Assembly: GCA_017853435.1 (NCBI GenBank) | Contig: JAFMJN010000001.1 | Span: 2,603-66,602 of the forward strand | Reading direction: 5' to 3' | Source of the DNA: Planctomycetota bacterium | Lineage (GTDB): Bacteria; Planctomycetota; GCA-002687715; CAIWVZ01 | Length of the DNA: 64,000 nucleotides | Part shown: positions 4,262 to 64,000 of the stretch, piece after piece | How the letters are laid out: every line of letters starts with the position of its first letter | How positions within the stretch are numbered: the stretch's first letter is position 1 | The notes under the pieces: model-generated | The model's input: the letters and a program-made list of their open reading frames with translations, nothing else | What the model was told of the DNA's origin: nothing | The model's database searches: none | Made by a program: the position numbers and the translations under genes

Positions 4262-4347
4262 CGGGGGTTTTAGCAGGACGCTCCCCGTGAAAACAACGCA
4301 GGCCCCCGCACCCTTCGGGAGCGGAGGCCTGCGTCGAGAAGCCTATC

Positions 4348-47464: not shown

Positions 47465-47470
47465 CGGGGC

Positions 47471-48316
47471 TCAGCGCAGCGCGCCTTCGGGGTTGACGTC
47501 GAGGGCGCGGAGATCGAAGCGGGCTTCCACGCGACGCCGGTCGTTCGGATCGGCACCCTTCCGTTCCTTCACGGATCCGTCGGGCGGGAAATCCAAACTG
47601 GTGACCACGGCTTTTTCGACCGCGAGCCAACGGCCGGCGAGCGCTTCGCTGCCGGTGTTGTCCTGCGCGAGCGCGCGCACCACGATCGACACGGCGCGCG
47701 GGTGGCCGACGACGGACAGCGACACCTTCGTCCCGGCGACGAACGGGGTCTTCGCGCCCGGGCTCTTCTTTTCCGGCTTGTCGATTTCGATGCGTTCGAC
47801 GCGAGCGATCCCGCCCTCCACTTCGCGTTCCGCCGCGAGAGCGATCACGAGGACCTGTTCGACGACGTCGAGTCCGCGCATCCAATGTTCTTGATCGGAT
47901 CGCTGGGACGGGAAGGCGTCGGGCAGGCCGAGTCGTTGGTCGACGTCGATATTGCGGACGGCACAGGCTTCGAGCGTCCCGTTTCGGAAGCGTTCGAGTT
48001 GCGCGTTGTAGTAAAGATCGGAATCGGCGACGTCGGATGCGATGCGCCATTCCTTCGCCGGAACGCGGGCGACGTTCGTACGCAGACCGTCGTAGCCCGC
48101 TTCAAGCGTGCCGCGGTTCTCGACCGCCTTGCGGAGGTCGAATCCGGCGGGCAGCGCCTGCTTCTGGTCCGCCTTCGCACGACCGATCTTCGCGCGCGCG
48201 GCTTGAATACGGCCGTCGAACGCTCCGTCGATCAAGAGGACGCCGACGAGCAACAAGAGCCCCCCCGCGACGACCGACATGATGAACTTGCGGTGTTCCT
48301 GCCAAATGTCGCCCAT
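47471..48316 (-). CDS. Bitopic inner-membrane protein, GspM/PilO-like assembly component (tentative).
   Basis: Single N-terminal TM (IMSVVAGGLLLLVGVLLI) followed by a helical then alpha/beta periplasmic domain. Sits immediately downstream of the GspL-like gene. Confidence 0.4.
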   Translation of the reverse strand: MGDIWQEHRKFIMSVVAGGLLLLVGVLLIDGAFDGRIQAARAKIGRAKADQKQALPAGFDLRKAVENRGTLEAGYDGLRTNVARVPAKEWRIASDVADSDLYYNAQLERFRNGTLEACAVRNIDVDQRLGLPDAFPSQRSDQEHWMRGLDVVEQVLVIALAAEREVEGGIARVERIEIDKPEKKSPGAKTPFVAGTKVSLSVVGHPRAVSIVVRALAQDNTGSEALAGRWLAVEKAVVTSLDFPPDGSVKERKGADPNDRRRVEARFDLRALDVNPEGALR

Positions 48317-48319
48317 GGC

Positions 48320-49990
48320 TCACGTCCCTCCGGTCAAGTCGACGCGCACCGTGTAGGAAAGCACGCCGCCGCCTCGAGCCGCGCCGCCTTTTTGGTCGGC
48401 GATCGACACGTCCGAGCCCGGAAGCGCTTTTTGAAGGCCGAGGACGAAATCCTGCAGAGCCTTCTCGGGCTGCCCCGCCTGCGACGTCGCCTGCCCCGCG
48501 ACGTAGGCGACGGTGCGCAGCACACGCGGCGACTTCGGGTCCTTCGGGTCGGTGGGGCGCGCCTCGCGCTGAACCGTGACCGAGCCGACCCATGCGCCTT
48601 CCGGCAGCGCCTCTTGAACGACCTTTTGAATCCGTGCGAGTCCTTCGCCGGGTTCCGTCCATCCGGCGAGGGCGGCCATCCTTTGGTTGATGTCGCGGAT
48701 ACGTTCCTGTTCGGTATCCCACGTCTTGCGGTCGCGCTTCGCCTTATCGGCCGCGCGGACTTCCGCCGCGGCGTCCTTTTCGAGTCGTCCGGCTTCGGCC
48801 ATGCCGTCCCAAAGGCGGAACCCCAGGAATCCTGCGGCGGCGACGCCCGAGAGGATCATCCACAAAGTTCGTTCACGGAAACTTCGTCGCGTCCGCGTCG
48901 CCGAAGTGACCACGTCGAGTTTGAACGCGGCCGGATCGCCCGACGTGATCATGAGCCCCAAAGCCACCGCGAACGCGCCCGGGTCTTCGAGGAACGTCTT
49001 CGCGTCCTCGGCGGGTAACGCGGAGGTGTCGAGCGCGTTTTCCGGTTGGAACCGAACGACGGGGCAGCGGAACGCGGCGGACAGGTAGTCGGAGAGACCT
49101 CGGAGGCGGGCACCTCCGCCCGAAAGCAGGATGCGCGAGGGTTCGAGGTCGCGAATCTTCGTCTGCGCCCGAATGAACGCGAGACTGGACTGAATCATGG
49201 CGGTTAGTTGGCCGACCGGGCCGACCAACGCGTTCGCCACTTTCTCTTCCTTGCCCGATGCGTACGCCGCGCGGCCCTTCGGGCTGACGTTGCCCGACTG
49301 GTGTTTCAGCGCCTCGGCATCCGCCGTTCCGAGTCCGAACCCGGACGCGACGGCCTCGGTCAATGCACGACCTCCGCCCGCCAAGTTGCGTGCGAACAGC
49401 AACTCGCCGTCCTTCACCAAAGCGATTTCGAGGTTGCGGTCTCCGATATCGACGAGAAGCGCGGCTTCGCCGTCACGCGGGTCACCCGTCGCGAGGAAGG
49501 CGTTCGCCAAGGCGACCGACGACGGAGTCCCGCAAGACGGGTCGCCGACCGTGGCGGCCGCGTCATGGCGGGCCGAGAGGAAGCCCTCCTTGCAGACGGC
49601 CACCATGACGTTTTCTTCTCCCGCCGACGCGTTCGGCAGTTGAAGGAGATTCCAGTCGCTCGCGAGCGCGTCTCCGACGGTCTGCGACATGTCGCGGACC
49701 TCGACGTCCATAAGGAATCGAAGGCGCCACAGCGGAACCTTCGGAACGGTCGTGTAACGGATGATCAGCGAAGGGCCGGAGATGCCGAAACGCACACCGG
49801 GCACGCGTCCCTTCGGGCCGAGCTCCGCCGCGAGTGTTCCGACCGCTGCGAGGGTCGCCGATTCCCCGTCCCCCGACGAATCGACCGAAGCCTGAAGCAC
49901 ACGCTGCAATTTCCAACGCGTCCCCGCACGCTCGGCGACGACCATTCGGACATGGTTGGATCCGAGATCGAGTCCTGCGAAAACCTTCAC
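48320..49990 (-). CDS. GspL-like protein (or PilM-PilN fusion). Cytoplasmic actin-like domain, TM segment and periplasmic domain.
   Basis: MKVFAGLDLGSNHVRMVVAE...LLVDIGDRNLEIALVKDGELLFARNL actin-like ATPase-fold motifs. TM segment TLWMILSGVAAAGFLGFRLW. Coiled-coil periplasmic tail. Confidence 0.6.
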   Translation of the reverse strand: MKVFAGLDLGSNHVRMVVAERAGTRWKLQRVLQASVDSSGDGESATLAAVGTLAAELGPKGRVPGVRFGISGPSLIIRYTTVPKVPLWRLRFLMDVEVRDMSQTVGDALASDWNLLQLPNASAGEENVMVAVCKEGFLSARHDAAATVGDPSCGTPSSVALANAFLATGDPRDGEAALLVDIGDRNLEIALVKDGELLFARNLAGGGRALTEAVASGFGLGTADAEALKHQSGNVSPKGRAAYASGKEEKVANALVGPVGQLTAMIQSSLAFIRAQTKIRDLEPSRILLSGGGARLRGLSDYLSAAFRCPVVRFQPENALDTSALPAEDAKTFLEDPGAFAVALGLMITSGDPAAFKLDVVTSATRTRRSFRERTLWMILSGVAAAGFLGFRLWDGMAEAGRLEKDAAAEVRAADKAKRDRKTWDTEQERIRDINQRMAALAGWTEPGEGLARIQKVVQEALPEGAWVGSVTVQREARPTDPKDPKSPRVLRTVAYVAGQATSQAGQPEKALQDFVLGLQKALPGSDVSIADQKGGAARGGGVLSYTVRVDLTGGT

Positions 49991-52446
49991 TTGTTCCCCT
50001 CCCCGGCGGAGCGCAAACGCGACAGCCGCGCTTCCGCGTCACGGGCGGATTCCGATCCCGGATGACGTCGGATGACCGATTCGAACAGCGCGGCCGCGAC
50101 GTCGCGACGCCCCCTCGGATCACCGGCGTAGTCGATCGCGCGCAGGAGCGAGGCCTGCGCCTCGGCCGTCGCCCGGGCTCCCGACGTGGTCACGCGATCC
50201 TTTTCGAGAGTCTGCGCGAGTTGTTCGAATGCGTCTCCGACGGGAGCGCCCTTCCATTTTCCCGCAGCGTCGCGCACCGACGCGATCAACGCGCCGTCGG
50301 TCACGATCGTACGGAAGAAACGCGCGTCGTCCGCCCTCGCCTCGAAATCGCGCTGAAGATTGCGCGCGACTTCGGCAAGTCGATCGACCGCCGTACGCGC
50401 TTCGGATTCGATGCGATCCTCGAACGGGAAGCGTGCGAGTACCTGTCCGAATGCGGACAGCGCTTCTCCGAAGCGTCCGGCGCGCTCCGCTTCGCGCGCT
50501 TTCGCGAGGAGCACCCCGGCCGCTGAAAGTTCGGCTTCGAACGAGGTATCGATCGCACAGCGGAAACTCGTGGCCGCGCCTCGTTTCATCACGAGGACGG
50601 CGACTCCGCGAGCGTCGATCAGCGAGACGGGGATCGACGCGGCGCTTCCATCCATCGCGACGAAGCGCAACCGGACGCGTGCGCCCGCGTCGCCGACGAT
50701 GACGGCCGACGCCGGCGACGCGGCGAACGGTCCCCGTCGACGGACTCCGGTCTCGCCTTCAACCGTCGTCACGGTGACTTCCGCCGGACTACCGGGGACG
50801 ACCGCGGCGAAGTCCGTCTCGCCGGAGGCGCCCGCGAGTTCCCAGCCGATGGTCGCCGGTTCTCCCGTCAATGTCGCCTTGAGTCCTCCAACTGCCGGCG
50901 TCGGGCCGCCGAATCCGGGCCCCGCCGGAGCTTTCGGATCACGGAACGACCACGCTCCGAAGTCGCGGAACACGACGCGACCGGGGCGTGTCGCACGCAC
51001 GGCCCCCGAAGATCCCATCGCGACGGCGAGATTCCCCGCCTTCGTCGCGGAGTCGGGCGGCGGATCGACCGCCTCCACGGACACATCGTCGAACGCGGCT
51101 TCCCCGCGGCCTGCGAGGATGAGTCCGACGCGCACCTTCGTGTATCCGCCCGGATCGGCGAAAACACCGGAAACCAATTTGAAATCGGTCGACTCTCCCG
51201 CAGGGAGTACGTCGCGGACCGCGACCGATTCGTCGGCGTTGAGCCAGTCGAGGCACAATCCCGCGTCCGCTCCCGAATCGGCGCGGACGCGCGCCGTCAC
51301 GCGAAAAGCGCGACCGGCGGCGACATCGACGGCACCCGACGCCCCTTCGAGCCGTACGATTCCGGGCGTCGGTCCGCGTTCGGCGCGCGCCAACGTCATC
51401 GCCACGCCCGAAGGTCCGTCCACCATGCCGACCGATGTGGGATCCGCCGGATCGAGCGGTTTCCATCCTTCCGCTTCGGCCGATTCGCCCTCATCGGCCA
51501 CGGGTTCGAACGACCACCATTTTTCGGGAACGAGGTTCGACGCGACGTGCCTCGACGCACCCGCGACGGAAACATTTCGCGCCTCGTTGCGCATCCATAG
51601 GTAGCCGACGCCCCCCAGAAGCCCGACGATGACGAGAAGCATCACGATGTTGAAAACGGTGTCGGAGCGCTTCGGCGGAACCTTCACTTCGAAGCTCGCG
51701 CCACCCATGTCGAACGCGGGCGCAATCACGGTTCGCGCCTCCGGTTCGTCGGGCGCCTCTTCAAGCGCTTCCGGAGGCGGAGCGAAGTCAGATGCGGCAC
51801 CGATGCCGAACGTCGCGGTGAATGATCCGAACGTCACGACCGATCCGGAAGCGAGTTCCGCTTCCTCGACCGGTTCTCCATCGACCTTCGTTCCATTGGA
51901 GGAACCGAGGTCCTTGACCATCCAACCCGATCCCTTTTTCCGCAATTCGGCATGATCGCCCGACACGGACGGGTCGGAAAGCACGAGCGCGTTGCGCGGC
52001 TTGCGCCCCACGGTGAACGACTCACCCGAAATCTTGACGACCTCGCCGCGTCGCGAACCCGTCCCGAGAACGAGGACGACGTCTTGTTCGAGCGAGATTT
52101 CGTCCTCGCCCCAACCGTCTTCAACCGCGGGTTCGGAAGCCTCGACGCCGGCGTCGAGAAACCGTATGGAAACGGATCCGACGGAGATCACGTCGCCGTC
52201 TTGAAGTTCGAACTTCGAAACCTTGCGACCATTCACCAAGGTCCCGTTGGAGGAACCGAGATCTTCCACGAACCAAGCGGAACCGTCCTTGAAGAATCGG
52301 CAATGCTGCCGAGACGCTTCGGGGACGTCGAGGACGACGTCGTTGGTCGACGATCGGCCGGCTTTGACCTCGCTTCCGAGGGCCAATTCCCGAAAACCGG
52401 CGGCGTCCGTGATGGCAAGTTTTGGCATGGTGCGGTGCGCGTCCAC
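49987..52446 (-). CDS. Membrane protein with two N-terminal FHA domains, one TM segment and a large periplasmic domain. First gene of the pseudopilin operon.
   Basis: Two FHA cores (GRSSTNDVVLDVPEASRQHCRFF...VEDLGSSNGTLVNGRKV and GRKPRNALVLSDPSVSGDHAELR...VKDLGSSNGTKVDG). TM segment TVFNIVMLLVIVGLLGGVGYLW. An alternative start is the ATG at 52428 (MPKLAIT). 4-nt overlap with the GspL-like gene. Confidence 0.65.
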   Translation of the reverse strand: MDAHRTMPKLAITDAAGFRELALGSEVKAGRSSTNDVVLDVPEASRQHCRFFKDGSAWFVEDLGSSNGTLVNGRKVSKFELQDGDVISVGSVSIRFLDAGVEASEPAVEDGWGEDEISLEQDVVLVLGTGSRRGEVVKISGESFTVGRKPRNALVLSDPSVSGDHAELRKKGSGWMVKDLGSSNGTKVDGEPVEEAELASGSVVTFGSFTATFGIGAASDFAPPPEALEEAPDEPEARTVIAPAFDMGGASFEVKVPPKRSDTVFNIVMLLVIVGLLGGVGYLWMRNEARNVSVAGASRHVASNLVPEKWWSFEPVADEGESAEAEGWKPLDPADPTSVGMVDGPSGVAMTLARAERGPTPGIVRLEGASGAVDVAAGRAFRVTARVRADSGADAGLCLDWLNADESVAVRDVLPAGESTDFKLVSGVFADPGGYTKVRVGLILAGRGEAAFDDVSVEAVDPPPDSATKAGNLAVAMGSSGAVRATRPGRVVFRDFGAWSFRDPKAPAGPGFGGPTPAVGGLKATLTGEPATIGWELAGASGETDFAAVVPGSPAEVTVTTVEGETGVRRRGPFAASPASAVIVGDAGARVRLRFVAMDGSAASIPVSLIDARGVAVLVMKRGAATSFRCAIDTSFEAELSAAGVLLAKAREAERAGRFGEALSAFGQVLARFPFEDRIESEARTAVDRLAEVARNLQRDFEARADDARFFRTIVTDGALIASVRDAAGKWKGAPVGDAFEQLAQTLEKDRVTTSGARATAEAQASLLRAIDYAGDPRGRRDVAAALFESVIRRHPGSESARDAEARLSRLRSAGEGNK

Positions 52447-52673: not shown

Positions 52674-52746
52674 GGTCCCGTAGCTCAGTGGATAGAGCAT
52701 CGGTCTTCGGAACCGCAGGTCGCCCGTTCGAATCGGGCCGGGACCG
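52674..52746 (+). tRNA. tRNA-Arg (anticodon TCG).
   Basis: Cloverleaf by hand folding. Acceptor GGTCCCG/CGGGACC, D-arm GCTC-AGTGGATA-GAGC, anticodon arm TCGGT-CTTCGGA-ACCGC (one T.C mismatch at 27:43), T-arm GCCCG-TTCGAAT-CGGGC, discriminator G. No encoded CCA. Confidence 0.75.
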
Positions 52747-52969
52747 CTGAGATTTCGCGAGGTTTCGCCGTTCCCGCACCTCCCAGTGCCGGAGTGCCGC
52801 CATCGATCTGCGGCCCTACCGGGCCGAGGAACCGATGCCCTAACCCGGTTACCCGGCACCACCGATTGCCGCCACGCCCGTTATCCCAAGCCTTCAACAA
52901 CCGATCGCAGAGTGGATCTGCCGCAAGTAGAACCGACTAGACGCGAGTCCAGCGGTCATGGCTTGGATC

Positions 52970-53497
52970 TCAGGCGATGGTGCGGACGGTGACCCCGAAT
53001 CGCCGTTCGCTGCCCGCACGCGCTCCGTTTAAACCGACCCCGGACACGACGGTCATGGCCTCGAGTGATACGTGTCCATCGGAGTGCGGGCGCGGACACT
53101 CGGCCTGCCCTCCGCTACGGCCCCCTCTACACTCTCTGCAGCCGCACTCCCCCTTCCAGCGAAGGACCCGCACCCTCCACCGATAGAGGATGGCGTCGTG
53201 GCCACCGACACCCCGCACCGACGAGTGAAGGACGGCCACTGGAGCAACGTCCTCAGCAACCAAGATGGCGGGGGCAGGACATCTCGTATCAAAGAGAACT
53301 GCTTGGGTCACGAGACGGCGAGCAGCATGACATGTCGGACGAGTTTCCGCCGTCGACGCGAGCGACTCCATCGTTCGAGTGCCTTCCAAACTGCGATTCC
53401 GATTGCGGATGAGCGGACGCACCACACGGGGGGCAGGACACCTCGTCGCAAAGAGGACCGTTTGGGTCGGGAGAAGGCGAGCGGCGTAGGGTCCCAT
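52970..53497 (-). pseudogene. Two tandem decayed copies of the Rhs N-terminal leader module (orphan Rhs 5' remnants). Probably non-functional.
   Basis: Translation contains ...ETRPTCHAARRLVTQAVLFDTRCPAPAILVAEDVAPVAVL... and ...TQTVLFATRCPAPRVV... These are homologous to the Rhs1 leader SLASTVENRPTCHAARRRVTQTVLFETRCPAPAILVAEDHAPLAVL (58500-58693). At nucleotide level 'ggcgggggcaggacacctcgtctcaaagagaacggtttgggtcac' recurs at about 53260, 53410 and 58540. Confidence 0.5.
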
Positions 53498-53502
53498 GCG
53501 CG

Positions 53503-53973
53503 CTACTGCGGTGGTGGCTGAGATCCCCGAGCCAATGGTCGAAACTGCTCACCGTTCCCAATTTGAAATCGATAGCCGACGCACACACCATCCGAAATGT
53601 GCAGACGAAAATACGAGGGGAGTAGATCGCTAGTAGGTCCTGACTTGGACGGAATGAGAACCCCGCCCATACGGTACTCAAGAATCGTAATCGGTGGTGC
53701 GGCTGACTCCCGATCAGGGGGGCCAAGGTTGTCATTGATCCACGCAGCGGTCCTTTGCAATACCCCTTCTCGTTCAACCAAGTCACCAACCATATAGGGA
53801 CGGCGATTAACGGGGCTCAGCTCATCACTGCCGCGCATCCTCCAAATATCTGGGGCAAATGGAATGAGTCGCGCAAAATCGTAGTGAGCATCATCCGCTA
53901 CCGCGAACGCGCCTAACCCCCAACCTAAGAGACCGGCAAATGCAACGGCAACAGACCATTTGACTTGAATCAT
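53503..53973 (-). CDS. Secreted hypothetical protein in the Rhs island (accessory or immunity candidate).
   Basis: The ATG at 53973 overlaps the stop of the upstream gene (ATGA). Signal peptide MIQVKWSVAVAFAGLLGWGLGAFAVA. AT-rich relative to the flanks. Confidence 0.4.
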   Translation of the reverse strand: MIQVKWSVAVAFAGLLGWGLGAFAVADDAHYDFARLIPFAPDIWRMRGSDELSPVNRRPYMVGDLVEREGVLQRTAAWINDNLGPPDRESAAPPITILEYRMGGVLIPSKSGPTSDLLPSYFRLHISDGVCVGYRFQIGNGEQFRPLARGSQPPPQ

Positions 53974-54614
53974 CGTTGGGCTTCGCTTAGCATTGCACTA
54001 GCGCCCTCGAAGAGTCCTAACTCACTACAAATGCCGTGTGTGAATTTCAGTCGCATGACAATGCGCCTTGGTTCAGGCGATGGCCAGCCACGCCCCGCGG
54101 TCGATCCCATATCGAACTCTGCGGACAGATCGCCGTGTCGACGATCAGGCGCTCCTACCCGCTCAAACACGTCTGTGGTCGACTGACCCAGAATCGATCC
54201 GTCTCGCGCCAATGCACCAACCATCGTTGCGCGAACCTGCCGCGGGTACCCGACGGTGTCGTGAGCGCTTTTCCAGACGGAGGGATCAAACGCGGACGAG
54301 TCCCAGTACTTGACTTGCTTCAAGTGCATCGACTCGGATCGCGATCCAATGAACACCAAGTACCCTAGGAATCCGACGACCCAGAGCAGTCCTCGCCATG
54401 AACGAATGAAATTGCCCGCGCGCCGTGGGTGGTGAATCAAGACCAACAATCCATACACCATAAAACCAAAGCACATGAAGCACACCAGCCCCAGTAATCC
54501 AGTTGGACTGGAATCAAAGCCTATCAGCCCGGACAAAAGCGCAAGCGGGAGCAAGAAAACCTGAACGCCACCTGCCAACAACATTCCAGTGAACCACTCA
54601 AACGAAGTCAACAT
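53970..54614 (-). CDS. Polytopic membrane protein, candidate immunity protein for the Rhs1 C-terminal toxin.
   Basis: ATG at 54614. At least four hydrophobic helices (GMLLAGGVQVFLLPLALLSGLIGF, LLGLVCFMCFGFMVYGLLVLI, LLWVVGFLGYLVFIG). Lies downstream of the Rhs1 stop in a low-GC patch. Confidence 0.4.
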   Translation of the reverse strand: MLTSFEWFTGMLLAGGVQVFLLPLALLSGLIGFDSSPTGLLGLVCFMCFGFMVYGLLVLIHHPRRAGNFIRSWRGLLWVVGFLGYLVFIGSRSESMHLKQVKYWDSSAFDPSVWKSAHDTVGYPRQVRATMVGALARDGSILGQSTTDVFERVGAPDRRHGDLSAEFDMGSTAGRGWPSPEPRRIVMRLKFTHGICSELGLFEGASAMLSEAQR

Positions 54615-54823
54615 GGTATCCCCCCTGATGACTCACCGGGGTGCCCCCGAGAGGCTCGTGCACGATAATAGTCATGACAGTTGAACCCCCGCGCAACACC
54701 CGATCCGCATCACACCGAAGCACCCGACATATCTCGAACAAACCGGCCCGAAATAGTATCTGCTCGATTGTGTCCGTGAATGGCACGAGAACCAATCAGA
54801 ACAATTTACTCGCGAACGGAGGT

Positions 54824-57800
54824 TCACCTCGGCCTCCTCCTAGTCATCTTGCCGAATGCATATCCGTATGCCCACAGGTCCAGATCGGCGCCAACAGGGA
54901 TATCCCCCGTCGGATCGCCATCCAACTCAACACCGCCGTTGAGCGGATTGCAGCCTTTGGGTCCATGCCAAATCACGGGCCCATGCGGCATCGTCTTGCC
55001 TCCCCCAGATGGCGGAGGTGTGGTTCCACGGTGCACGGGAATCCGCCGCAATGGGTACGCGAACCGAAGCATTAGTAGCCCTCGGTCGAGTTTGTCCTTG
55101 CAGCAAGTCCAGCAATCGTCAGGCGTCTTCTTGGGAAATGCACACAGAAATCCAGCCTCGTTATTAAGGACGTCCTTCCTACTCTCACCATTCCATTTCC
55201 CACCTGCCCAGTTTTCCGTGTCAAAGAGCTCATGCGAACCCATTCCAGCTCTGGCGGCCAGCCCGCCATACTGCCTCACTGCCATACACGCTCCCACACA
55301 GTGCACCATTGCGTTGAAGGCCTCATTCGGTGCGTCCGGTGGAAATCCATGCTCCCGGAGCACCCTTGACGCCGCAGCCATCAAGCTTTCAGACTGAGTT
55401 GGAGGCGGCTCAGACAGCCCCATAACGCGCCGAGCGGCTCCGGCTGAGTTCTCTCCCATGCCCTGCTCTCCAAGCGGATCCGTTGTGTCAAGTGGCATGG
55501 AATCCACATACCCATACCCATAGACCCCCGACGCATCGAGGATCGGGTCCCTCTCAAGGAACCCGCCCGTCTCCGGCCGGTACCACCTTGCACGGTAGTA
55601 GTAGAGCCCGATCTCCTGGTTCCACTCTCGTCCCGTGTACGTGAAGTCCTGCTCGCCCTGCGACATGTTCGGGCTGTAGTACGTCCCCGTTCCGTCGCAG
55701 AACTGCACCTGACCGTAGTCGGTGTACCGGTACGTCTCGAGCACACCCCCTTCGATCGTGATTGTGTTTGTCAGATTCGACACGACACACTGCACGGTCC
55801 CCAGGAAGTCGCCCTGGTAGTAGCCCTCGTAGTAGTAACTTGGGCCTGCGTTGAAGATGTCCGCCCGTGCCCAAAGGATCTGGTCCATCAGGTAGGGGCC
55901 GTACACCCTCACGAACTTCACGCGGGACTCGCTCAGGGGGCTCGACCCGGCTTGCACCACGAACTCTTCGATCGGTTGCTCACCGTCGTAGTACGTGTGC
56001 GTCCAGAACGAGCCGTTCGTGTCCTTGCGCTCGATGCGGCGGCCAAATGGGTCGTACCGGTAGCGCCAGACATGACCGCTGCCGTCGGTCGCTTCGTAGA
56101 TCCGGTTCTCCATGTCCACCTTGACCGTCGGGGACGTCTTCTGGTTCCCGTTCGTGTCAAACGTGTTGGTCTCTTGGGAGGTCTGCGTCAGCGTCGAGCC
56201 GTTCCAGTCGTACACCGTGCGGGTGCCCAACTGGTTTTGCGTGTCGAACACGTGGTCTTCTCGGCGGACGCCCGACTGCGACGGGGTGTCGTATTGGAGC
56301 GTCTTCCGGTTACCCACTTCGTCGAGCGTGAACTGACGCCGGTAGGCGAAGTCCGTTGTGGACTCGGTGGCCGACTCCACAGCCGAGTGGCTGGAGGTCG
56401 CGTACCCCACTCCGTAAAGCGTCTTCGTCAGGCGGTTGGCACCGTCGTAGTAGTACCGGTCGCCGTAGTCGAGGACTCCGCCCAGAGTGGCCCCTGTGGA
56501 GGCGTTGATGTAGTCCCGGCGTTCGAAGGTCACTCGGCCGCCCGCGTCGTACCCGCGCTTCAGGTCGACCGTCGTTGTCCGAGTCCCGTCCTTCAGCCTA
56601 TCCCATGTGAGCTGCGTCGCGCGGCCGTACGCGTCATACGCGAGCGTCTCGCGCGAGCGGTCGGATCCAAGCGTCAACTTCGTCATCCGGCGTGGGCCAG
56701 CGAAGTCCCAGTCGGCAGCGACGACGTAGGTCGGGCTTCCGGCCGTGATGTCGTCGGTTCGCTCCAGTTTGCTCACGCGGTTCAAGGAGTCGTACGTCCG
56801 CTTCACTCCGGTCAGGCCGTCGGGATACTTCACGAGGCTAAGGAGCCCGTCTCCCCCGTACGTGTACTCGACCTTCCGGTACGTGGTTCCAGACCCGCTG
56901 TCGTCCGTCGGCGTGATCCACGTCGTTTCGGATTCGAGTTTGCCTAGGGTGTTCCACGTTCGCGTCACGAGGGAATCCCGATTGTAGGCCGAGGTCAGGC
57001 GGCCGACGCCATCATACAGGAACTTCACCAGTGTGGGGCCTACCACATTCGTCGCTAGGGAATACGACTTCGTCAGCAGCAGATTTCGGCTGTCGTACGT
57101 GTACGTCGCCGAGGACCCGTTCCGGTCGGTCCTCGTCGAGACGTTATGGGCTTGGTCGTAGGTTAATGACACGGTGTCCGAGCCCGCCTCGTCGTAACTC
57201 AGGGTCAAGCGGTCAGCCTGGTCATACTCGTAGCGGCAGGACGTGTCGCCAGACCCTCGGACGTTCGTCCGGGTGACCAGGTTGTCGTTCAGGTCGTAGA
57301 CCATCACCGTATCGAGGTAAGTGGGGCTGCCGCCTCCGGTAAGGCGCCGCCTCACCTTCGTCACCCGGCCAAAATCGTCATAGAGGTTGGCAACGACGTT
57401 GCCGTTCGGGTCCGTTGCGGTCCGGACCCGGCCAAACCCGTCCACGTCGTAGGTCGTGGTCAAGGCCGTGGCGGAGCCACCCCCTCGCTCGCTGGTCGAG
57501 GTAAGGTGCCCGTCGGCATCGTAGGCGTGCTCCACGACGTAGGTCTTCGTGGTCCCGCCTTCCACCTCGTCGGCCGTGGTCTTTGTCACCCGTCCGGAAG
57601 GGTCCAACTGGCTCGTGACAGAGTTGCCGAGGGCGTCTGTCACCTTCGAGCGGCGGCCAGCCCCGTCGAAGGTGTAGGTCGTTGTGGAAGCCCCACCCCC
57701 GCACCCGCAGGAGTCGGTCGTCTGGGTCAGGCGGCCGCTCTTGTCGTAGGACATCGTGAAGGTCACGGTCCCGCTCTCGATGTCCGTCGAGAGATCGGCC

Positions 57801-58693
57801 TTCTTGGCCCATTGGGCGGTGGACGTCACGCGGTTGTCCCCGTCGTAGGACGCCCGGGACTCGATCAGTTTCGTGTTGCCGGAGTTGTACCGCTGACGCG
57901 TCACCGCGTTCGAGTTCTTATCGAACGTCGTCGTTGCGTAGTGGGATCCCGGATCCGTCATCTTCGTCGTCCGGTCGAACCCGTCGTACGCGAGCGTCGT
58001 CGCGTTCCCCTTACCGTCTTGCATCTTCGTCAGGCGGTGGTTCTGGTCGTACTCCCGGACCGACGAGGAGGCGTAGGCCGTCCCGCTCGCCACGGTCTTC
58101 GTCACTTCCAAGCCACGCATGTCGAACGTCGTGGTTTTCGAGTTGCCGCGGGGGAGCGTCACGGAGGTCACCCGGTCTTCCCTATCGCGGGCGAAGGCCC
58201 AGATGCGGTTGGACCCGTAACTCGAACCGTACTGCATCGTGATCGCCGACACCTCGTCAAGGAGGGTGTAGGACGTGAGGATGCGTTGCTCTGAGTTCGA
58301 GATGTCGGCGTTGCCGTGGTCGCGACGGGTCTCGGTCACCCGGTCGTTTAAGTCGTAGAAGTAGTCGGTCACCTTACCTGTCGGCGAGGTCACCGAGGTC
58401 GGGTAGCCAAGCGCGTTACGCGAGATCGTGGTGGTACCGCTCGTTGGGTCGGTGATGGAGGTGACGTTGTATGCGCTGCGAACGCGCGCTGACGAGGAGA
58501 GGACTGCCAATGGGGCATGGTCCTCAGCGACCAAGATGGCGGGGGCAGGACACCTCGTCTCAAAGAGAACGGTTTGGGTCACCCGACGACGAGCAGCATG
58601 ACATGTCGGACGATTCTCCACCGTCGATGCGAGCGAATTGAGTGAGCGAATGGCCTTCGAACCAAGATTTCGGGCGCGGACGAGCGATTGCAT
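54824..58693 (-). CDS. Rhs/YD-repeat protein (Rhs1, about 1289 aa) with a short unique N-terminal leader, a full RHS core and a variable C-terminal toxin domain.
   Basis: Many YD repeats (YEYDQADRLT, YTYDSRNLL, YRYDPFGRR). Core end YYYRARWYRPETGGFLERDPI...DPLGEQG (DPxG cleavage-type motif) followed by a 230-aa unique tail. The ATG at 58693 with a GAGG SD is preferred. The ORF-track N-terminus (to 58834) overlaps the upstream membrane-protein gene in another frame. Confidence 0.75.
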   Translation of the reverse strand: MQSLVRARNLGSKAIRSLNSLASTVENRPTCHAARRRVTQTVLFETRCPAPAILVAEDHAPLAVLSSSARVRSAYNVTSITDPTSGTTTISRNALGYPTSVTSPTGKVTDYFYDLNDRVTETRRDHGNADISNSEQRILTSYTLLDEVSAITMQYGSSYGSNRIWAFARDREDRVTSVTLPRGNSKTTTFDMRGLEVTKTVASGTAYASSSVREYDQNHRLTKMQDGKGNATTLAYDGFDRTTKMTDPGSHYATTTFDKNSNAVTRQRYNSGNTKLIESRASYDGDNRVTSTAQWAKKADLSTDIESGTVTFTMSYDKSGRLTQTTDSCGCGGGASTTTYTFDGAGRRSKVTDALGNSVTSQLDPSGRVTKTTADEVEGGTTKTYVVEHAYDADGHLTSTSERGGGSATALTTTYDVDGFGRVRTATDPNGNVVANLYDDFGRVTKVRRRLTGGGSPTYLDTVMVYDLNDNLVTRTNVRGSGDTSCRYEYDQADRLTLSYDEAGSDTVSLTYDQAHNVSTRTDRNGSSATYTYDSRNLLLTKSYSLATNVVGPTLVKFLYDGVGRLTSAYNRDSLVTRTWNTLGKLESETTWITPTDDSGSGTTYRKVEYTYGGDGLLSLVKYPDGLTGVKRTYDSLNRVSKLERTDDITAGSPTYVVAADWDFAGPRRMTKLTLGSDRSRETLAYDAYGRATQLTWDRLKDGTRTTTVDLKRGYDAGGRVTFERRDYINASTGATLGGVLDYGDRYYYDGANRLTKTLYGVGYATSSHSAVESATESTTDFAYRRQFTLDEVGNRKTLQYDTPSQSGVRREDHVFDTQNQLGTRTVYDWNGSTLTQTSQETNTFDTNGNQKTSPTVKVDMENRIYEATDGSGHVWRYRYDPFGRRIERKDTNGSFWTHTYYDGEQPIEEFVVQAGSSPLSESRVKFVRVYGPYLMDQILWARADIFNAGPSYYYEGYYQGDFLGTVQCVVSNLTNTITIEGGVLETYRYTDYGQVQFCDGTGTYYSPNMSQGEQDFTYTGREWNQEIGLYYYRARWYRPETGGFLERDPILDASGVYGYGYVDSMPLDTTDPLGEQGMGENSAGAARRVMGLSEPPPTQSESLMAAASRVLREHGFPPDAPNEAFNAMVHCVGACMAVRQYGGLAARAGMGSHELFDTENWAGGKWNGESRKDVLNNEAGFLCAFPKKTPDDCWTCCKDKLDRGLLMLRFAYPLRRIPVHRGTTPPPSGGGKTMPHGPVIWHGPKGCNPLNGGVELDGDPTGDIPVGADLDLWAYGYAFGKMTRRRPR
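55502..58469. repeat. Copy 1 (Rhs1 core) of a 2,968-bp near-identical direct repeat. Its partner is at 60331-63298, period 4,829 bp.
   Basis: Nucleotide identity starts at 'atccacatacccatac' (55502 / 60331) and ends at 'ggtgacgttg' (58469 / 63298). Only one mismatch was noticed (ttgggtcgg vs ttggatcgg near 58446 / 63275). The ORF track shows identical ORFs offset by 4829. Confidence 0.9.
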
Positions 58694-58706
58694 CGCACGG
58701 GCCTCA

Positions 58707-59477
58707 TCACACGGTATCAACGTCTTTGTAGATAAATAATGGAAGTCGAACAAAACCAATCCAAATAAACTTAAGCACGTCAACTCGAACTGCGGCTTCC
58801 CGGGATGTCGGGTCCCGAAAAAGAACCGCATCAAAAATAATTCCGCGCCCGAAGAACGCTCTTAACGCTGAGCACTGTGGATGATCTGCGCTCCTATGAG
58901 TTTGGCGTTTCCAACTGAGTGCCTCGCGAATTCTTCGGCGGAGTGAATCCGGAGGCATCGACTCTTGTGGCGTGCCTGTGAACGTTTGGCCAACAAGCGT
59001 AGCCACATCATCGAAATTAATGTCAACCAACACGCCGCGTTCCATGGTCCAACACTTCTCACTACCAACCGACGAGCTCGAATGCAACGGCGCGCCCGAC
59101 AACCGTCCAAGGCGAAATGTACTCCAAACAGAATAGCCCCAAGCGACCAGTAGAACCGTAACCAGTTCCAACGACGGATGCGCCCAAGTAAAGTGCCAAC
59201 CCCCGAATTGCAACACGGCCGCTCCAAAATCACGAGTCAAAGCACACGCAAACAGAAGGGACTTCGAATCGAACAAAATAATTCCACGCCGCAGACTAAG
59301 GCTGATCCCGCCGTGAAACAGGACTAAGAACAAAGGGACAGACATTGATCGAGCAGCAACTAAATCCAGTAGCACCGTGCAGCTCATGCACGCAGCAAAC
59401 CAAACCGCCATGAGCAGTATCGCAGATGCGACCCTTGGCGGTGTTGAAGGGTGTTTGTAGACAGAAATTTTACTCAT
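58707..59477 (-). CDS. Polytopic membrane protein with a C-terminal soluble domain, candidate immunity protein for the Rhs2 C-terminal toxin.
   Basis: ATG at 59477, 58 bp downstream of the Rhs2 stop. At least four N-terminal TM helices. AT-rich (about 50% GC) relative to the flanks. The stop lies 13 nt before the Rhs1 ATG. Confidence 0.45.
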   Translation of the reverse strand: MSKISVYKHPSTPPRVASAILLMAVWFAACMSCTVLLDLVAARSMSVPLFLVLFHGGISLSLRRGIILFDSKSLLFACALTRDFGAAVLQFGGWHFTWAHPSLELVTVLLVAWGYSVWSTFRLGRLSGAPLHSSSSVGSEKCWTMERGVLVDINFDDVATLVGQTFTGTPQESMPPDSLRRRIREALSWKRQTHRSADHPQCSALRAFFGRGIIFDAVLFRDPTSREAAVRVDVLKFIWIGFVRLPLFIYKDVDTV

Positions 59478-59535: not shown

Positions 59536-62500
59536 TCAATGCCCTAACTTCTTGGGCCTTGAATCTGCCGGGATAACCGGACGACTCCCCGGGGCTGGCT
59601 TTACGTCAACGGGACTGTGTTCGACTTCTGGAATTAGAGGCTTGCGCTTCCTGCAGCACTTTTCGGGGGCGTACCCATCTTTCGCCTTCTTCAGATTTTT
59701 TGCCGCCTCGGATTGTGCGGCTGCATACTTCTCCAGCGTTGCACGGGCATCGGAGCTCGACAGTACTTCGTAGTGGTCGTCGCTGCCCATGAATCTAGTC
59801 CAACCATCCACTACGCCAACCGAGCCACCGGCCACTTCCGCTGCTCCCAGTGCGACTCCACCAACACTGATTTCAACAGCGACTCCAACGCCTATTATCG
59901 TGCCCGCCCCACCCGTCGTGGCAGTACTACCTACTACGACCACAATGCTGACAGCCACAGAGCCCAGTGCTACTCCAGCACCTTTCACAAGGACACCAGC
60001 GCCCGCGGCCATCTCAGCCATCCCTAGAAGAATTTGCCGTTCGGTACCTTTAACAAATCGGCCCTCGTCAAGCAGCCGCTCAAGAGGTCCTGCCTTCTCG
60101 CGCCACTTGTCCCATGCGTCGTCAACGGCGTCAAGGCAACTTCTTTCGAATTCACTGCAGCATTCCGTGTCAAAACTCCCCCCATTCGCCTCACACACCT
60201 TCTTCGCATCGACACACGTTGGTCGACAAGCAAATGCCCTAAGTGAACTTCTCGACTCTTTGTTCTTCTGATAGGGAGTCGGTCTTAGTGCTTGAAATCC
60301 AGCAGGGTCGATCTGGTCTGTCGGCATCCCATCCACATACCCATACCCATAGACCCCCGACGCATCGAGGATCGGGTCCCTCTCAAGGAACCCGCCCGTC
60401 TCCGGCCGGTACCACCTTGCACGGTAGTAGTAGAGCCCGATCTCCTGGTTCCACTCTCGTCCCGTGTACGTGAAGTCCTGCTCGCCCTGCGACATGTTCG
60501 GGCTGTAGTACGTCCCCGTTCCGTCGCAGAACTGCACCTGACCGTAGTCGGTGTACCGGTACGTCTCGAGCACACCCCCTTCGATCGTGATTGTGTTTGT
60601 CAGATTCGACACGACACACTGCACGGTCCCCAGGAAGTCGCCCTGGTAGTAGCCCTCGTAGTAGTAACTTGGGCCTGCGTTGAAGATGTCCGCCCGTGCC
60701 CAAAGGATCTGGTCCATCAGGTAGGGGCCGTACACCCTCACGAACTTCACGCGGGACTCGCTCAGGGGGCTCGACCCGGCTTGCACCACGAACTCTTCGA
60801 TCGGTTGCTCACCGTCGTAGTACGTGTGCGTCCAGAACGAGCCGTTCGTGTCCTTGCGCTCGATGCGGCGGCCAAATGGGTCGTACCGGTAGCGCCAGAC
60901 ATGACCGCTGCCGTCGGTCGCTTCGTAGATCCGGTTCTCCATGTCCACCTTGACCGTCGGGGACGTCTTCTGGTTCCCGTTCGTGTCAAACGTGTTGGTC
61001 TCTTGGGAGGTCTGCGTCAGCGTCGAGCCGTTCCAGTCGTACACCGTGCGGGTGCCCAACTGGTTTTGCGTGTCGAACACGTGGTCTTCTCGGCGGACGC
61101 CCGACTGCGACGGGGTGTCGTATTGGAGCGTCTTCCGGTTACCCACTTCGTCGAGCGTGAACTGACGCCGGTAGGCGAAGTCCGTTGTGGACTCGGTGGC
61201 CGACTCCACAGCCGAGTGGCTGGAGGTCGCGTACCCCACTCCGTAAAGCGTCTTCGTCAGGCGGTTGGCACCGTCGTAGTAGTACCGGTCGCCGTAGTCG
61301 AGGACTCCGCCCAGAGTGGCCCCTGTGGAGGCGTTGATGTAGTCCCGGCGTTCGAAGGTCACTCGGCCGCCCGCGTCGTACCCGCGCTTCAGGTCGACCG
61401 TCGTTGTCCGAGTCCCGTCCTTCAGCCTATCCCATGTGAGCTGCGTCGCGCGGCCGTACGCGTCATACGCGAGCGTCTCGCGCGAGCGGTCGGATCCAAG
61501 CGTCAACTTCGTCATCCGGCGTGGGCCAGCGAAGTCCCAGTCGGCAGCGACGACGTAGGTCGGGCTTCCGGCCGTGATGTCGTCGGTTCGCTCCAGTTTG
61601 CTCACGCGGTTCAAGGAGTCGTACGTCCGCTTCACTCCGGTCAGGCCGTCGGGATACTTCACGAGGCTAAGGAGCCCGTCTCCCCCGTACGTGTACTCGA
61701 CCTTCCGGTACGTGGTTCCAGACCCGCTGTCGTCCGTCGGCGTGATCCACGTCGTTTCGGATTCGAGTTTGCCTAGGGTGTTCCACGTTCGCGTCACGAG
61801 GGAATCCCGATTGTAGGCCGAGGTCAGGCGGCCGACGCCATCATACAGGAACTTCACCAGTGTGGGGCCTACCACATTCGTCGCTAGGGAATACGACTTC
61901 GTCAGCAGCAGATTTCGGCTGTCGTACGTGTACGTCGCCGAGGACCCGTTCCGGTCGGTCCTCGTCGAGACGTTATGGGCTTGGTCGTAGGTTAATGACA
62001 CGGTGTCCGAGCCCGCCTCGTCGTAACTCAGGGTCAAGCGGTCAGCCTGGTCATACTCGTAGCGGCAGGACGTGTCGCCAGACCCTCGGACGTTCGTCCG
62101 GGTGACCAGGTTGTCGTTCAGGTCGTAGACCATCACCGTATCGAGGTAAGTGGGGCTGCCGCCTCCGGTAAGGCGCCGCCTCACCTTCGTCACCCGGCCA
62201 AAATCGTCATAGAGGTTGGCAACGACGTTGCCGTTCGGGTCCGTTGCGGTCCGGACCCGGCCAAACCCGTCCACGTCGTAGGTCGTGGTCAAGGCCGTGG
62301 CGGAGCCACCCCCTCGCTCGCTGGTCGAGGTAAGGTGCCCGTCGGCATCGTAGGCGTGCTCCACGACGTAGGTCTTCGTGGTCCCGCCTTCCACCTCGTC
62401 GGCCGTGGTCTTTGTCACCCGTCCGGAAGGGTCCAACTGGCTCGTGACAGAGTTGCCGAGGGCGTCTGTCACCTTCGAGCGGCGGCCAGCCCCGTCGAAG

Positions 62501-64000
62501 GTGTAGGTCGTTGTGGAAGCCCCACCCCCGCACCCGCAGGAGTCGGTCGTCTGGGTCAGGCGGCCGCTCTTGTCGTAGGACATCGTGAAGGTCACGGTCC
62601 CGCTCTCGATGTCCGTCGAGAGATCGGCCTTCTTGGCCCATTGGGCGGTGGACGTCACGCGGTTGTCCCCGTCGTAGGACGCCCGGGACTCGATCAGTTT
62701 CGTGTTGCCGGAGTTGTACCGCTGACGCGTCACCGCGTTCGAGTTCTTATCGAACGTCGTCGTTGCGTAGTGGGATCCCGGATCCGTCATCTTCGTCGTC
62801 CGGTCGAACCCGTCGTACGCGAGCGTCGTCGCGTTCCCCTTACCGTCTTGCATCTTCGTCAGGCGGTGGTTCTGGTCGTACTCCCGGACCGACGAGGAGG
62901 CGTAGGCCGTCCCGCTCGCCACGGTCTTCGTCACTTCCAAGCCACGCATGTCGAACGTCGTGGTTTTCGAGTTGCCGCGGGGGAGCGTCACGGAGGTCAC
63001 CCGGTCTTCCCTATCGCGGGCGAAGGCCCAGATGCGGTTGGACCCGTAACTCGAACCGTACTGCATCGTGATCGCCGACACCTCGTCAAGGAGGGTGTAG
63101 GACGTGAGGATGCGTTGCTCTGAGTTCGAGATGTCGGCGTTGCCGTGGTCGCGACGGGTCTCGGTCACCCGGTCGTTTAAGTCGTAGAAGTAGTCGGTCA
63201 CCTTACCTGTCGGCGAGGTCACCGAGGTCGGGTAGCCAAGCGCGTTACGCGAGATCGTGGTGGTACCGCTCGTTGGATCGGTGATGGAGGTGACGTTGCC
63301 GTACTGGTCTCTTGCAAACGTCGTCTCGATGGCAAGGCCGGACGGATCCACGGTCACCTTCGAGACCTGGCCGCCGCCAGTGTACGTAAATGCCACCACC
63401 TTCGACTCTGGATCGGTGACGGTGATCGGGCGGCTCAGGGAGTCATACGAGATGCTGTACCCCGACGCGCCAGTTTCTGGAGACTTCTGGCTGGTGACGT
63501 TGCCGTTGCCGTCGCGCGTGATCTCGAAGTCTCGGCCGTTTGGATCGATGACCTTCGTGAGGAGTTTCCAATCAGACGTGGTCTGGTAGACGTACTCCGT
63601 CACAAGATGGTCGCTCCCAGATCGCATCGTCGCGATGCTGGTTGCAGAGAGACCCGATGCTGTGGATTTGATGGATGCCGTGAGTAGCCCACCGGAGTAC
63701 TGGTAGAGCATCCCGTTGCCTTCAGGTGCAACGGATTTCGTGAGAAGTCCCGTCGATGAGTCCCAGTAGCACGTCGTGTCTTCGAAGGATTCGGGGGATC
63801 GCTCCTGCTTGATCTTCGTGATCGCATAGTTCGAGTCAAACTCGAAAATGCGACGCGCACCTTCCCGATCGATCTCCGTCGTCTTGTTCATCGCGTAGGT
63901 CACGACGTATTTCTGCGTCGACGAGTCGCCAAAAATCTGCTTCGTAACGCGCCCCGATCCGTCGTACTCCATCTGCAAGTACGCAGCCCCGCTCGACGCT
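59536..64000 (-). CDS. Rhs/YD-repeat protein (Rhs2), 5'-truncated by the window edge. Its C-terminal toxin domain contains a glycine-zipper hydrophobic segment.
   Basis: The ORF is open to the window edge with YD repeats throughout. The core is identical to Rhs1 over 2,968 nt. C-terminal tail after DPAGFQ: Cys-rich region, then GAGVLVKGAGVALGSVAVSIVVVVGSTATTGGAGTIIGVGVAVEISVGGVALGAAEVAGG. Confidence 0.75.
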   Translation of the reverse strand, partial: ASSGAAYLQMEYDGSGRVTKQIFGDSSTQKYVVTYAMNKTTEIDREGARRIFEFDSNYAITKIKQERSPESFEDTTCYWDSSTGLLTKSVAPEGNGMLYQYSGGLLTASIKSTASGLSATSIATMRSGSDHLVTEYVYQTTSDWKLLTKVIDPNGRDFEITRDGNGNVTSQKSPETGASGYSISYDSLSRPITVTDPESKVVAFTYTGGGQVSKVTVDPSGLAIETTFARDQYGNVTSITDPTSGTTTISRNALGYPTSVTSPTGKVTDYFYDLNDRVTETRRDHGNADISNSEQRILTSYTLLDEVSAITMQYGSSYGSNRIWAFARDREDRVTSVTLPRGNSKTTTFDMRGLEVTKTVASGTAYASSSVREYDQNHRLTKMQDGKGNATTLAYDGFDRTTKMTDPGSHYATTTFDKNSNAVTRQRYNSGNTKLIESRASYDGDNRVTSTAQWAKKADLSTDIESGTVTFTMSYDKSGRLTQTTDSCGCGGGASTTTYTFDGAGRRSKVTDALGNSVTSQLDPSGRVTKTTADEVEGGTTKTYVVEHAYDADGHLTSTSERGGGSATALTTTYDVDGFGRVRTATDPNGNVVANLYDDFGRVTKVRRRLTGGGSPTYLDTVMVYDLNDNLVTRTNVRGSGDTSCRYEYDQADRLTLSYDEAGSDTVSLTYDQAHNVSTRTDRNGSSATYTYDSRNLLLTKSYSLATNVVGPTLVKFLYDGVGRLTSAYNRDSLVTRTWNTLGKLESETTWITPTDDSGSGTTYRKVEYTYGGDGLLSLVKYPDGLTGVKRTYDSLNRVSKLERTDDITAGSPTYVVAADWDFAGPRRMTKLTLGSDRSRETLAYDAYGRATQLTWDRLKDGTRTTTVDLKRGYDAGGRVTFERRDYINASTGATLGGVLDYGDRYYYDGANRLTKTLYGVGYATSSHSAVESATESTTDFAYRRQFTLDEVGNRKTLQYDTPSQSGVRREDHVFDTQNQLGTRTVYDWNGSTLTQTSQETNTFDTNGNQKTSPTVKVDMENRIYEATDGSGHVWRYRYDPFGRRIERKDTNGSFWTHTYYDGEQPIEEFVVQAGSSPLSESRVKFVRVYGPYLMDQILWARADIFNAGPSYYYEGYYQGDFLGTVQCVVSNLTNTITIEGGVLETYRYTDYGQVQFCDGTGTYYSPNMSQGEQDFTYTGREWNQEIGLYYYRARWYRPETGGFLERDPILDASGVYGYGYVDGMPTDQIDPAGFQALRPTPYQKNKESRSSLRAFACRPTCVDAKKVCEANGGSFDTECCSEFERSCLDAVDDAWDKWREKAGPLERLLDEGRFVKGTERQILLGMAEMAAGAGVLVKGAGVALGSVAVSIVVVVGSTATTGGAGTIIGVGVAVEISVGGVALGAAEVAGGSVGVVDGWTRFMGSDDHYEVLSSSDARATLEKYAAAQSEAAKNLKKAKDGYAPEKCCRKRKPLIPEVEHSPVDVKPAPGSRPVIPADSRPKKLGH
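60331..63298. repeat. Copy 2 (Rhs2 core) of the 2,968-bp direct repeat.
   Basis: See copy 1. Confidence 0.9.

Follow-up and report, generated by a model that had tools for sequence, protein, structure and literature searches.

In enterobacteria such as Salmonella, Escherichia coli and Serratia, orphan rhs-CT/rhsI modules consist of a truncated core, a toxin tip and an immunity gene placed behind a full-length rhs gene, and the shared core allows tips to be switched by recombination; work by Koskiniemi et al. from 2014 is said to offer an example. Here, a comparable module is described in a stretch of 64,000 nucleotides (nt) of a planctomycete metagenome-assembled genome (MAG; assembly GCA_017853435.1, contig JAFMJN010000001.1), referred to below as the window. 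All positions are coordinates within this window, and features lie on the minus strand unless stated otherwise. The module, Rhs1, is an orphan rhs cassette in which a truncated core downstream of a full-length Rhs gene (Rhs2) carries its own tip (tip 1) and candidate immunity genes. It differs from the enterobacterial modules in its unusually long retained core (2.97 kilobases, kb), which is virtually identical to that of its neighbour, in the 250-nt direct repeat that brackets it, and in its setting, a planctomycete MAG with no visible type VI secretion system (T6SS) context. Tip 1 is a very divergent member of the Min-Wnt/DUF6973 family of the Lipocone superfamily, as established by transitive searches, profile searches and the predicted fold.

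The closest described proteins are the Min-Wnt domains (PF22322; Burroughs, Nicastro & Aravind, eLife 2025, PMC12419801). Tip 1 shares with them the five-helix soluble cone, the histidine of helix 2, the (His-)Glu of helix 3, the Asp of helix 4 and the NNxxG motif, as well as the role of C-terminal tip in polymorphic toxins, Rhs proteins among them. The immunity arrangement can also be likened, since membrane-anchored, periplasm-facing BamE-like proteins are the commonest immunity for Min-Wnt tips (PMC12419801). It differs from described Min-Wnt domains in scoring below the Pfam threshold, in an NAMVHxxG motif, in a C-terminal extension, and in being followed by two paralogous candidate immunity genes instead of one. 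Rhs Min-Wnt tips with periplasmic BamE-like immunity are already known from computational work, and a single member of the family is known from experimental work. This is BteO, which forms the BteO–BtiO pair of the Bacteroides fragilis T6SS and is reported to be toxic in the periplasm and to bind OmpA rather than act as a catalyst (He et al., PNAS 2025, PMC12541434; PDB 9UU0, 9UU1). BteO shares the conserved residue set with tip 1, but it is only ~14% identical, is a stand-alone T6SS cargo and not an Rhs tip, and carries an Arg in its Arg-His pair that tip 1 lacks; BtiO has no sequence similarity to the candidate immunity proteins found here. A third system, TelC–TipC of Streptococcus intermedius, involves an LXG toxin of the same superfamily, a lipid II phosphatase that acts outside the cytoplasm on a lipid-linked precursor and is countered by immunity on the membrane or periplasm side (PMC12419801). 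It serves as a mechanistic model for the tip, despite belonging to another clade of the superfamily and to a Gram-positive type VII secretion system.

The features of the cassette are as follows.

54824..58834, minus strand: Rhs open reading frame (ORF; "Rhs1") with RHS repeats and an Rhs_assc_core.
55502..58469, minus strand: orphan (N-terminally truncated) Rhs core, a duplicate of the Rhs2 core at 60331-63298.
55460..55501, minus strand: last part of the Rhs core, which carries the cleavage-type motif (S)MPLDTTDPLGEQG, read from the translation; the Rhs copies diverge here.
54824-55480, minus strand: variable tip from the D of DPLGEQG to the stop, 218 amino acids (aa).
55061..55399, minus strand: Min-Wnt/DUF6973 (Lipocone) toxin domain, a predicted five-helix bundle, tail residues ~28-140.
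54824..55060, minus strand: Pro/Gly-rich linker, C-terminal extension (~60-75 aa; VIWHGPKG...IPVG...RRRPR) and stop, of low confidence in the AlphaFold2 (AF2) model.
53970..54614, minus strand: candidate immunity protein 1, 214 aa, with three transmembrane (TM) helices and a predicted periplasmic ααβββ domain of ~110-120 aa.
53503..53973, minus strand: candidate immunity protein 2, 156 aa, with a predicted signal peptide (...GAFAVA/DD) and a paralogous domain.
54598..54795, minus strand: 65-aa ORF in the gap, with a TTG start and overlapping the start of the 214-aa gene; rejected as a gene.

The Rhs nature of the long ORF is clear from Pfam and NCBIfam profiles. PF05593 (RHS_repeat) matches in 13 stretches (E 1.4e-33), the YD-repeat model TIGR01643 matches at E 3e-23, and Rhs_assc_core (TIGR03696) covers residues 1050-1122 (E 6.7e-14). 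The name Rhs1 comes from a sequence-only reading, made by a model from the letters of the window; this is not a full gene, comparison with the upstream Rhs having shown an N-terminally truncated duplicate. At an offset of 4829 nt, 2,968 nt of Rhs1 match Rhs2 with a single mismatch (at 58448), and identity falls to background on both flanks. The 5' breakpoint falls within the repeats (...YGNVTSITDP by Rhs2 numbering) and the 3' breakpoint at 55499-55501, just upstream of the DPxG motif, where YVDS-MPLDTTDPLGEQG in Rhs1 faces YVDG-MPTDQIDPAGFQA in Rhs2. Since identity with the neighbouring copy ends just upstream of DPLGEQG, the 218-aa tail is a genuine variable tip, as had been proposed; it starts directly after the autoproteolysis-type motif PLDTTDPLGEQG, and the strings quoted earlier for this region (MPLDTTDPLGEQG, NEAFNAMVHCVGACMAVRQYGG and DDCWTCCKDKLDRG) are all present in Rhs1. 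At the other end, Rhs2 has at least 235 more residues within the window. Because its N-terminal plug/trafficking region is incomplete, Rhs1 was filed as an orphan cassette and not as a stand-alone Rhs toxin. Its frame is open throughout (1,290-1,336 codons) and contains, 11 nt after the preceding gene, an in-frame ATG (58696) with GAGG in front of it, which gene callers also use as the start in independent contigs.

An exact 3-kb duplication might arise as an assembly artefact, which was rejected because independent contigs span the orphan junction. The junction of the upstream 256-aa ORF, the repeat and the orphan core is matched exactly in four independent samples (contigs L013, L014, L016 and L018), and all six contigs checked are colinear with the locus at ≥99.7% identity. 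All short-read contigs with the 214-aa gene end shortly inside the shared core, as expected of a true repeat. The complete order runs from the full-length Rhs with tip 2 through the 256-aa multi-TM ORF and a repeat to the truncated core with tip 1, behind which come the genes for the 214-aa and 156-aa proteins and a second copy of the repeat.

The family of tip 1 emerged through intermediates. The tail itself has no direct Pfam, NCBIfam or PDB-sequence match and no k-mer homologue, in line with the earlier statement that it resembles no recognisable toxin family; the family was nevertheless reached by transitive and profile searches and by fold. An exhaustive phmmer (HMMER) search of 1.84 billion representative proteins with the tail returned six proteins at E ≤ 0.001. 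One of them, P0001, is a 55-aa fragment of tip 1 itself, and P0002 is the only close relative, 43% identical to the tail (E 1.3e-28), including the C-terminal extension. The remaining four are weak (E 2e-4 to 9e-4), yet they score 1e-15 to 1e-20 against PF22322, and two of the four are Rhs tips themselves. A profile built from the six proteins retrieved 171 proteins, and among the matches listed all 120 belong to PF22322. Fungal and rotifer proteins are included, in agreement with the eukaryotic transfers described for the family (PMC12419801). Furthermore, a profile of the tail and P0002 aligned by hhalign with 50 bona fide DUF6973 sequences over 89 columns (97.3% probability, E 2e-11). The gathering threshold of PF22322 is 27 bits; the tail falls below it, and P0002 scores 13.2 bits (E 0.07). 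All six Min-Wnt sequences taken from the source data of PMC12419801 pass this threshold, therefore Min-Wnt and DUF6973 are one family in practice. The family profile also matches BteO by sequence (E 3.6e-12).

Structure prediction gave a concordant picture. With an alignment of 121 sequences, AF2 produced a confident five-helix domain over tail residues ~28-140 (predicted local distance difference test, pLDDT, 73-94), with the remaining ~75 residues unmodelled. As modelled, this domain has the five-helix soluble Lipocone fold shared with Wnt. A Foldseek comparison of the tip with the PDB was not significant, BteO appearing only at E 5.4. The extension (tail residues 141-218) is conserved with P0002 alone, as TPP..GG...VIW.GPKG..P...G.E..G...PVG...R.PR; a short C-terminal "broken-hairpin" domain occurs on some Min-Wnt toxins (PMC12419801). 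The subfamily is rare, comprising two complete tips and one remnant among ~15 billion proteins. Scans of genome contigs with the tail and of metagenome contigs with the tail subfamily returned nothing, and the subfamily strings are absent from those supplementary sequence files of PMC12419801 that were available.

In the ancestral Lipocone active site, helix 2 contributes a His, helix 3 a Glu and helix 4 an Asp, joined in the Wnt/SAA clade by an sNxxGR motif (PMC12419801). Tip 1 keeps H60 (55301-55303), H83-E84 (55229-55234), E99, D103 (55172-55174), N106-N107 and G110, each of which is at least 97% conserved in the 121 homologues. The residue after G110 is Phe, at a position that varies in the family (R in 36, Y in 29, L in 21 and F in 16 of the 121). 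In BteO, alanine at R143, H144, H167, E168, D187 or D191 abolishes toxicity (PMC12541434). By direct alignment, these six essential residues correspond to V59, H60, H83, E84, E99 and D103 of the tail, so that five of the six are kept. The same conservation analysis, which had been suggested as a check on the Cys/His residues, changed the view of the cysteines. The sequence-only reading had seen in them a possible catalytic dyad or metal site. Across the homologues, C61 and C127 occur together in 110 sequences, are jointly missing from 4 and occur singly in 7; for C65 and C123 the corresponding counts are 16, 104 and 1. The partners are spaced i/i+4 on helices 2 and 5, and C61-C127 and C65-C123 are probably inter-helix disulfides, judging from this covariation; a third pair, specific to the subfamily, may be formed by C113 and C126. 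Such paired covariation points to an extracytoplasmic protein and speaks against a Cys/His dyad. In many Min-Wnt sequences of the PMC12419801 source data, C61 is replaced by Ala, Thr or Gly.

The two genes behind the tip look like periplasm-facing antidotes of tip 1. As noted from sequence alone, a gap of 209 nt (54615-54823) separates the tip from a start/stop-overlapped pair; the start of the 214-aa gene at 54614 is preceded by GGGGGGA, and the two genes overlap by ATGA and are translationally coupled. The 214-aa product had been described as a four-TM protein, of which the membrane location stands and the helix count does not, since three helices are followed by a soluble domain of ~120 aa. 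The loop before TM3 is rich in Arg (HHPRRAGNFIRSWR), which by the positive-inside rule places the N-terminus inside and the C-terminus outside, with the soluble domain outside the cytoplasm. The 156-aa product carries a predicted signal peptide and can be regarded as secreted, as proposed. The soluble domains of the two proteins are paralogues of each other, 24% identical across 93 residues (E 1e-5). An exact match to the 214-aa protein exists in a public collection, in a MAG labelled "Planctomycetota bacterium" (assembly GCA_041157525.1), and a contig scan with the 156-aa protein gave matches from the source organism only. The profile of the immunity domain has no PDB match of note and no Pfam match. 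As for a family-wide immunity link, it was ruled out, the gene after another Rhs-DUF6973 tip (L011) being unrelated.

The relative P0002 lies in a locus from another metagenome sample (L007/L008), where the arrangement of tip and downstream genes recurs in the same order. Its tip is followed by a 234-aa three-TM protein, 34% identical to the 214-aa protein (E 3e-31), and then, in L007, by a 144-aa protein, 32% identical to the 156-aa protein (E 8e-20). Upstream in L007, at 4070-4576, a remnant of a third tip was found (DLNNAAGVTC...SCTKCCWKKLWRGRL; E 7e-4), and behind it the secreted protein has a third paralogue (152 aa, L007 4963-5421, E 2e-10). With the two complete loci, this remnant and its paralogue mean that the immunity domain family tracks the tip subfamily in three of three instances. 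It is both genes of the pair that co-occur with the tip. The 65-aa ORF in the gap, earlier suggested as the true immunity protein, was ruled out, given that the equivalent gap in L007 measures 91 nt; it has no Pfam or NCBIfam match and no homologue. In L007, positions 3651-5421 and 9394-10215 form an array of decayed cassettes, in which an ankyrin-repeat gene runs into a Min-Wnt-like tip remnant. Next come a 643-aa orphan Rhs fragment with two immunity genes and, on the opposite strand, a DDE-type transposase-like ORF.

Altogether, we consider it rather probable that tip 1, the divergent Min-Wnt tip of an orphan Rhs cassette, would attack lipid-linked cell-wall precursors in the periplasm, with the paralogous pair as antidotes. 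The cassette would be a stored tip, with truncated core, tip and two immunity genes kept behind a full-length Rhs. The near-identical core would make tip swapping possible by homologous recombination, and an exchange within these 2.97 kb would place tip 1 on the full-length, exportable Rhs; alternatively, the orphan could be translated directly from the ATG at 58696. After delivery, the tip would be freed at the C-terminal autoproteolytic motif DPLGEQG, would fold as a disulfide-stabilised five-helix cone and would act in the periplasm of the target, on the outer side of the inner membrane. There, a pocket formed by His60, Glu84 and Asp103 would cleave a phosphate-linked head group from its lipid carrier (lipid II or other undecaprenyl-PP-linked precursors) in a TelC-like manner, which would block cell-wall synthesis. 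By analogy with TelC, such cleavage is the most likely chemistry for the tip. Action on lipid head groups is itself a prediction for the Lipocone superfamily, and among its families of diffusible toxins TelC is the only one with an experimentally shown activity (PMC12419801). The producer would be protected by its two paralogous periplasm-facing proteins, which would bind the tip through a BamE/BtiO-like domain, one anchored by three TM helices and the other secreted.

Several observations weigh against this reading. First, the tail gives no match to Pfam DUF6973 even at E ≤ 1. Five near-invariant family positions (98-99%) are altered in it (D56N, F58M, R59V, W63G and M102K), so that the helix-2 motif DAFRHxxW of the family reads NAMVHxxG (N-A-M-V-H-C-V-G) and the Met-Asp of helix 4 reads Lys-Asp. 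In the 121 sequences, the family residue is found 120 times for Arg and 119 times each for Trp, Phe, Met and D56, and tip 1 is the only aligned sequence that lacks both the Arg and the Met before Asp. As these changes include the counterpart of BteO R143, the activity or target may differ or be lost. The altered motif is common to P0002 and marks a divergent subfamily. In addition, no Min-Wnt protein has a demonstrated enzymatic activity, and the sole studied member, BteO, is reported as non-enzymatic (PMC12541434) and is likewise the only one shown to be toxic in the periplasm. On the immunity side, the AF2 model, built on a two-sequence alignment, is of low confidence (pLDDT 55.6), with a soluble part arranged as helix-helix-strand-strand-strand, the order of the BamE-like fold. 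BtiO and BamE appear among its best structural matches, amid many helical matches of similar Z. No sequence-level link of the candidate immunity proteins to BamE or BtiO was found, and an hhalign comparison with E. coli BamE (an approximate query) was not significant, aligning only an LGxSxxxVxxxLGxP stretch. The refuting condition named in the sequence-only reading, an alignment to a characterised toxin with a known immunity partner missing here, does not apply: the tip does align to such a toxin, BteO, and BteO's partner BtiO is among the best matches of the downstream protein, albeit in this low-confidence model. Finally, just two loci carry the subfamily, so the co-occurrence rests on a very small sample, and no secretion-system genes adjoin the orphan within the window.

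A different mode of action, doubtful in our view yet the strongest competitor, is that tip 1 works as reported for BteO, without catalysis. Its groove would bind OmpA-family proteins of the target periplasm at their peptidoglycan-binding C-terminal domain, disturbing envelope and cell-wall homeostasis, and the immunity proteins would mimic the target. BteO showed no peptidoglycan hydrolase or amidase activity and bound the OmpA C-terminal domain, a binding lost in the non-toxic mutants (He et al., PMC12541434). The interface residues are, however, the positions predicted to be catalytic in Lipocone proteins, and because the mutants hit these residues, a binding defect cannot be told from a catalytic one in these published data. 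The part of the report available bases its non-enzymatic conclusion on peptidoglycan hydrolase and amidase assays and describes none on lipid-linked precursors (PMC12541434). Moreover, the tail has V59 where BteO has R143, an Arg that BteO requires both to bind OmpA and to be toxic, and this leans slightly against the binding model. H, HE, D and NN are almost fully conserved in 121 homologues, fungal and rotifer proteins included, a pattern that fits an enzyme better than a binder of a single bacterial protein. An unlikely variant assigns the subfamily, without Arg, Trp and Met and with His, Glu, Asp and the extension, a shifted substrate or target, for instance a planctomycete-specific envelope lipid or protein. 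The two antidotes would then correspond to two sites of action, the membrane surface and the free periplasm.

It is more unlikely still that the cassette is a silent or decaying orphan, the remnant of an earlier tip displaced by that of Rhs2, of which only the immunity genes would remain useful, against neighbours firing the toxin. The orphan core does lack its N-terminal part (at least 235 aa of repeats in the window and the DUF6531 region), and P0002 is likewise a truncated fragment, beside a tip remnant and a transposase. A promoter/terminator scan found no promoter-like site for the orphan, but its consensus is E. coli-type and uninformative for Planctomycetota. Against decay stand the fully open frame, the intact polar residue set and cysteine pairs of the tip, and the ATG with its upstream GAGG; furthermore, one base difference in 2,968 from the active copy suggests recent duplication or ongoing gene conversion. 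A wholly novel toxin family with a Cys/His catalytic dyad or metal site and the 65-aa ORF as immunity is hardly credible: the absence of direct database matches and the adjacent, conserved H60-C61 speak for it, but DUF6973 membership is established, the cysteines covary as pairs, C61 is exchanged in many Min-Wnt sequences, and the 65-aa ORF cannot exist in the short gap of L007.

The neighbouring features place the cassette in a wider Rhs region.

59536..64000, minus strand, running off the window: full-length Rhs ("Rhs2"), the putative recombination partner of the orphan.
~59536-60330, minus strand: Rhs2 tip, different from tip 1, with a Cys-rich stretch and then a long glycine-rich hydrophobic segment (GAGVLVKGAGVALGSVAVSIVVVVGSTATTGGAGTIIGVGVAVEISVGGVALGAAEVAGG).
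58707..59477, minus strand: multi-TM ORF of 256 aa behind the Rhs2 tip; at least 23 contigs carry it.
58470..58712, minus strand: repeat element, copy 1, abutting the truncated core exactly.
53191..53485, minus strand: repeat element, copy 2 (53191-53441), with an extra 57-nt unit (53429-53485), just after the immunity pair.

In contig L014 (JGI 3300025872, Ga0208783_10001970), the complete Rhs2 product is 1,896 aa long with an N-terminal DUF6531, and no PAAR or VgrG was seen in this contig. The glycine-rich segment of the Rhs2 tip suggests a membrane-inserting, pore-forming toxin, for which the 256-aa ORF is presumed to be the immunity protein; neither has a Pfam or NCBIfam match. The two copies of the ~250-nt direct repeat, which bracket the 5.27-kb orphan cassette, are 75% identical overall and ~90% identical in a core of ~110 nt; this core includes the 57-nt unit, of which there are three copies in all. 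The element was found solely in contigs of the source organism and gave no Rfam match and no fold signal (z 0.78). Its layout fits the integration of a circular molecule (core fragment, tip, immunity genes and repeat) by a single crossover in the core. Base composition follows the tips, with a GC content of 0.53-0.585 across 53400-55400 against 0.60-0.69 in the flanks and a similar dip over the Rhs2 tip. The greater AT-richness reported for 53500-54830 is borne out, and the sequence-only reading was right to call a horizontally exchangeable Rhs toxin tip with downstream immunity genes. A plus-strand tRNA-Arg (TCG) gene (52674-52747) stands where the Rhs region ends, ~450 nt past the last repeat; tRNA genes are common borders of genomic islands. 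Directly beyond it, on the minus strand at 44618-52446, is a conserved cluster encoding an FHA/YscD-like protein (813 aa) and PilM/FtsA-like, TPR and N-methyl (pseudopilin-type) proteins, named after gene calls on contigs L001-L004.

What is new here is a rare divergent subfamily with an altered helix-2 motif and a conserved extension, a duplicated immunity gene in TM-anchored and secreted form, and the planctomycete orphan context. The locus offers a clean Rhs orphan cassette with duplicated immunity genes outside Proteobacteria and, although unlikely to surprise specialists in polymorphic toxins, makes what had been an "unknown toxin" testable as a member of the Min-Wnt/Lipocone group. Min-Wnt is the proposed bacterial ancestor of animal Wnt, and its mechanism is disputed between predicted catalysis on lipid-linked precursors and the non-enzymatic OmpA binding reported for BteO. 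A natural variant that keeps His, Glu and Asp and lacks the Arg essential in BteO could help to separate the two models.

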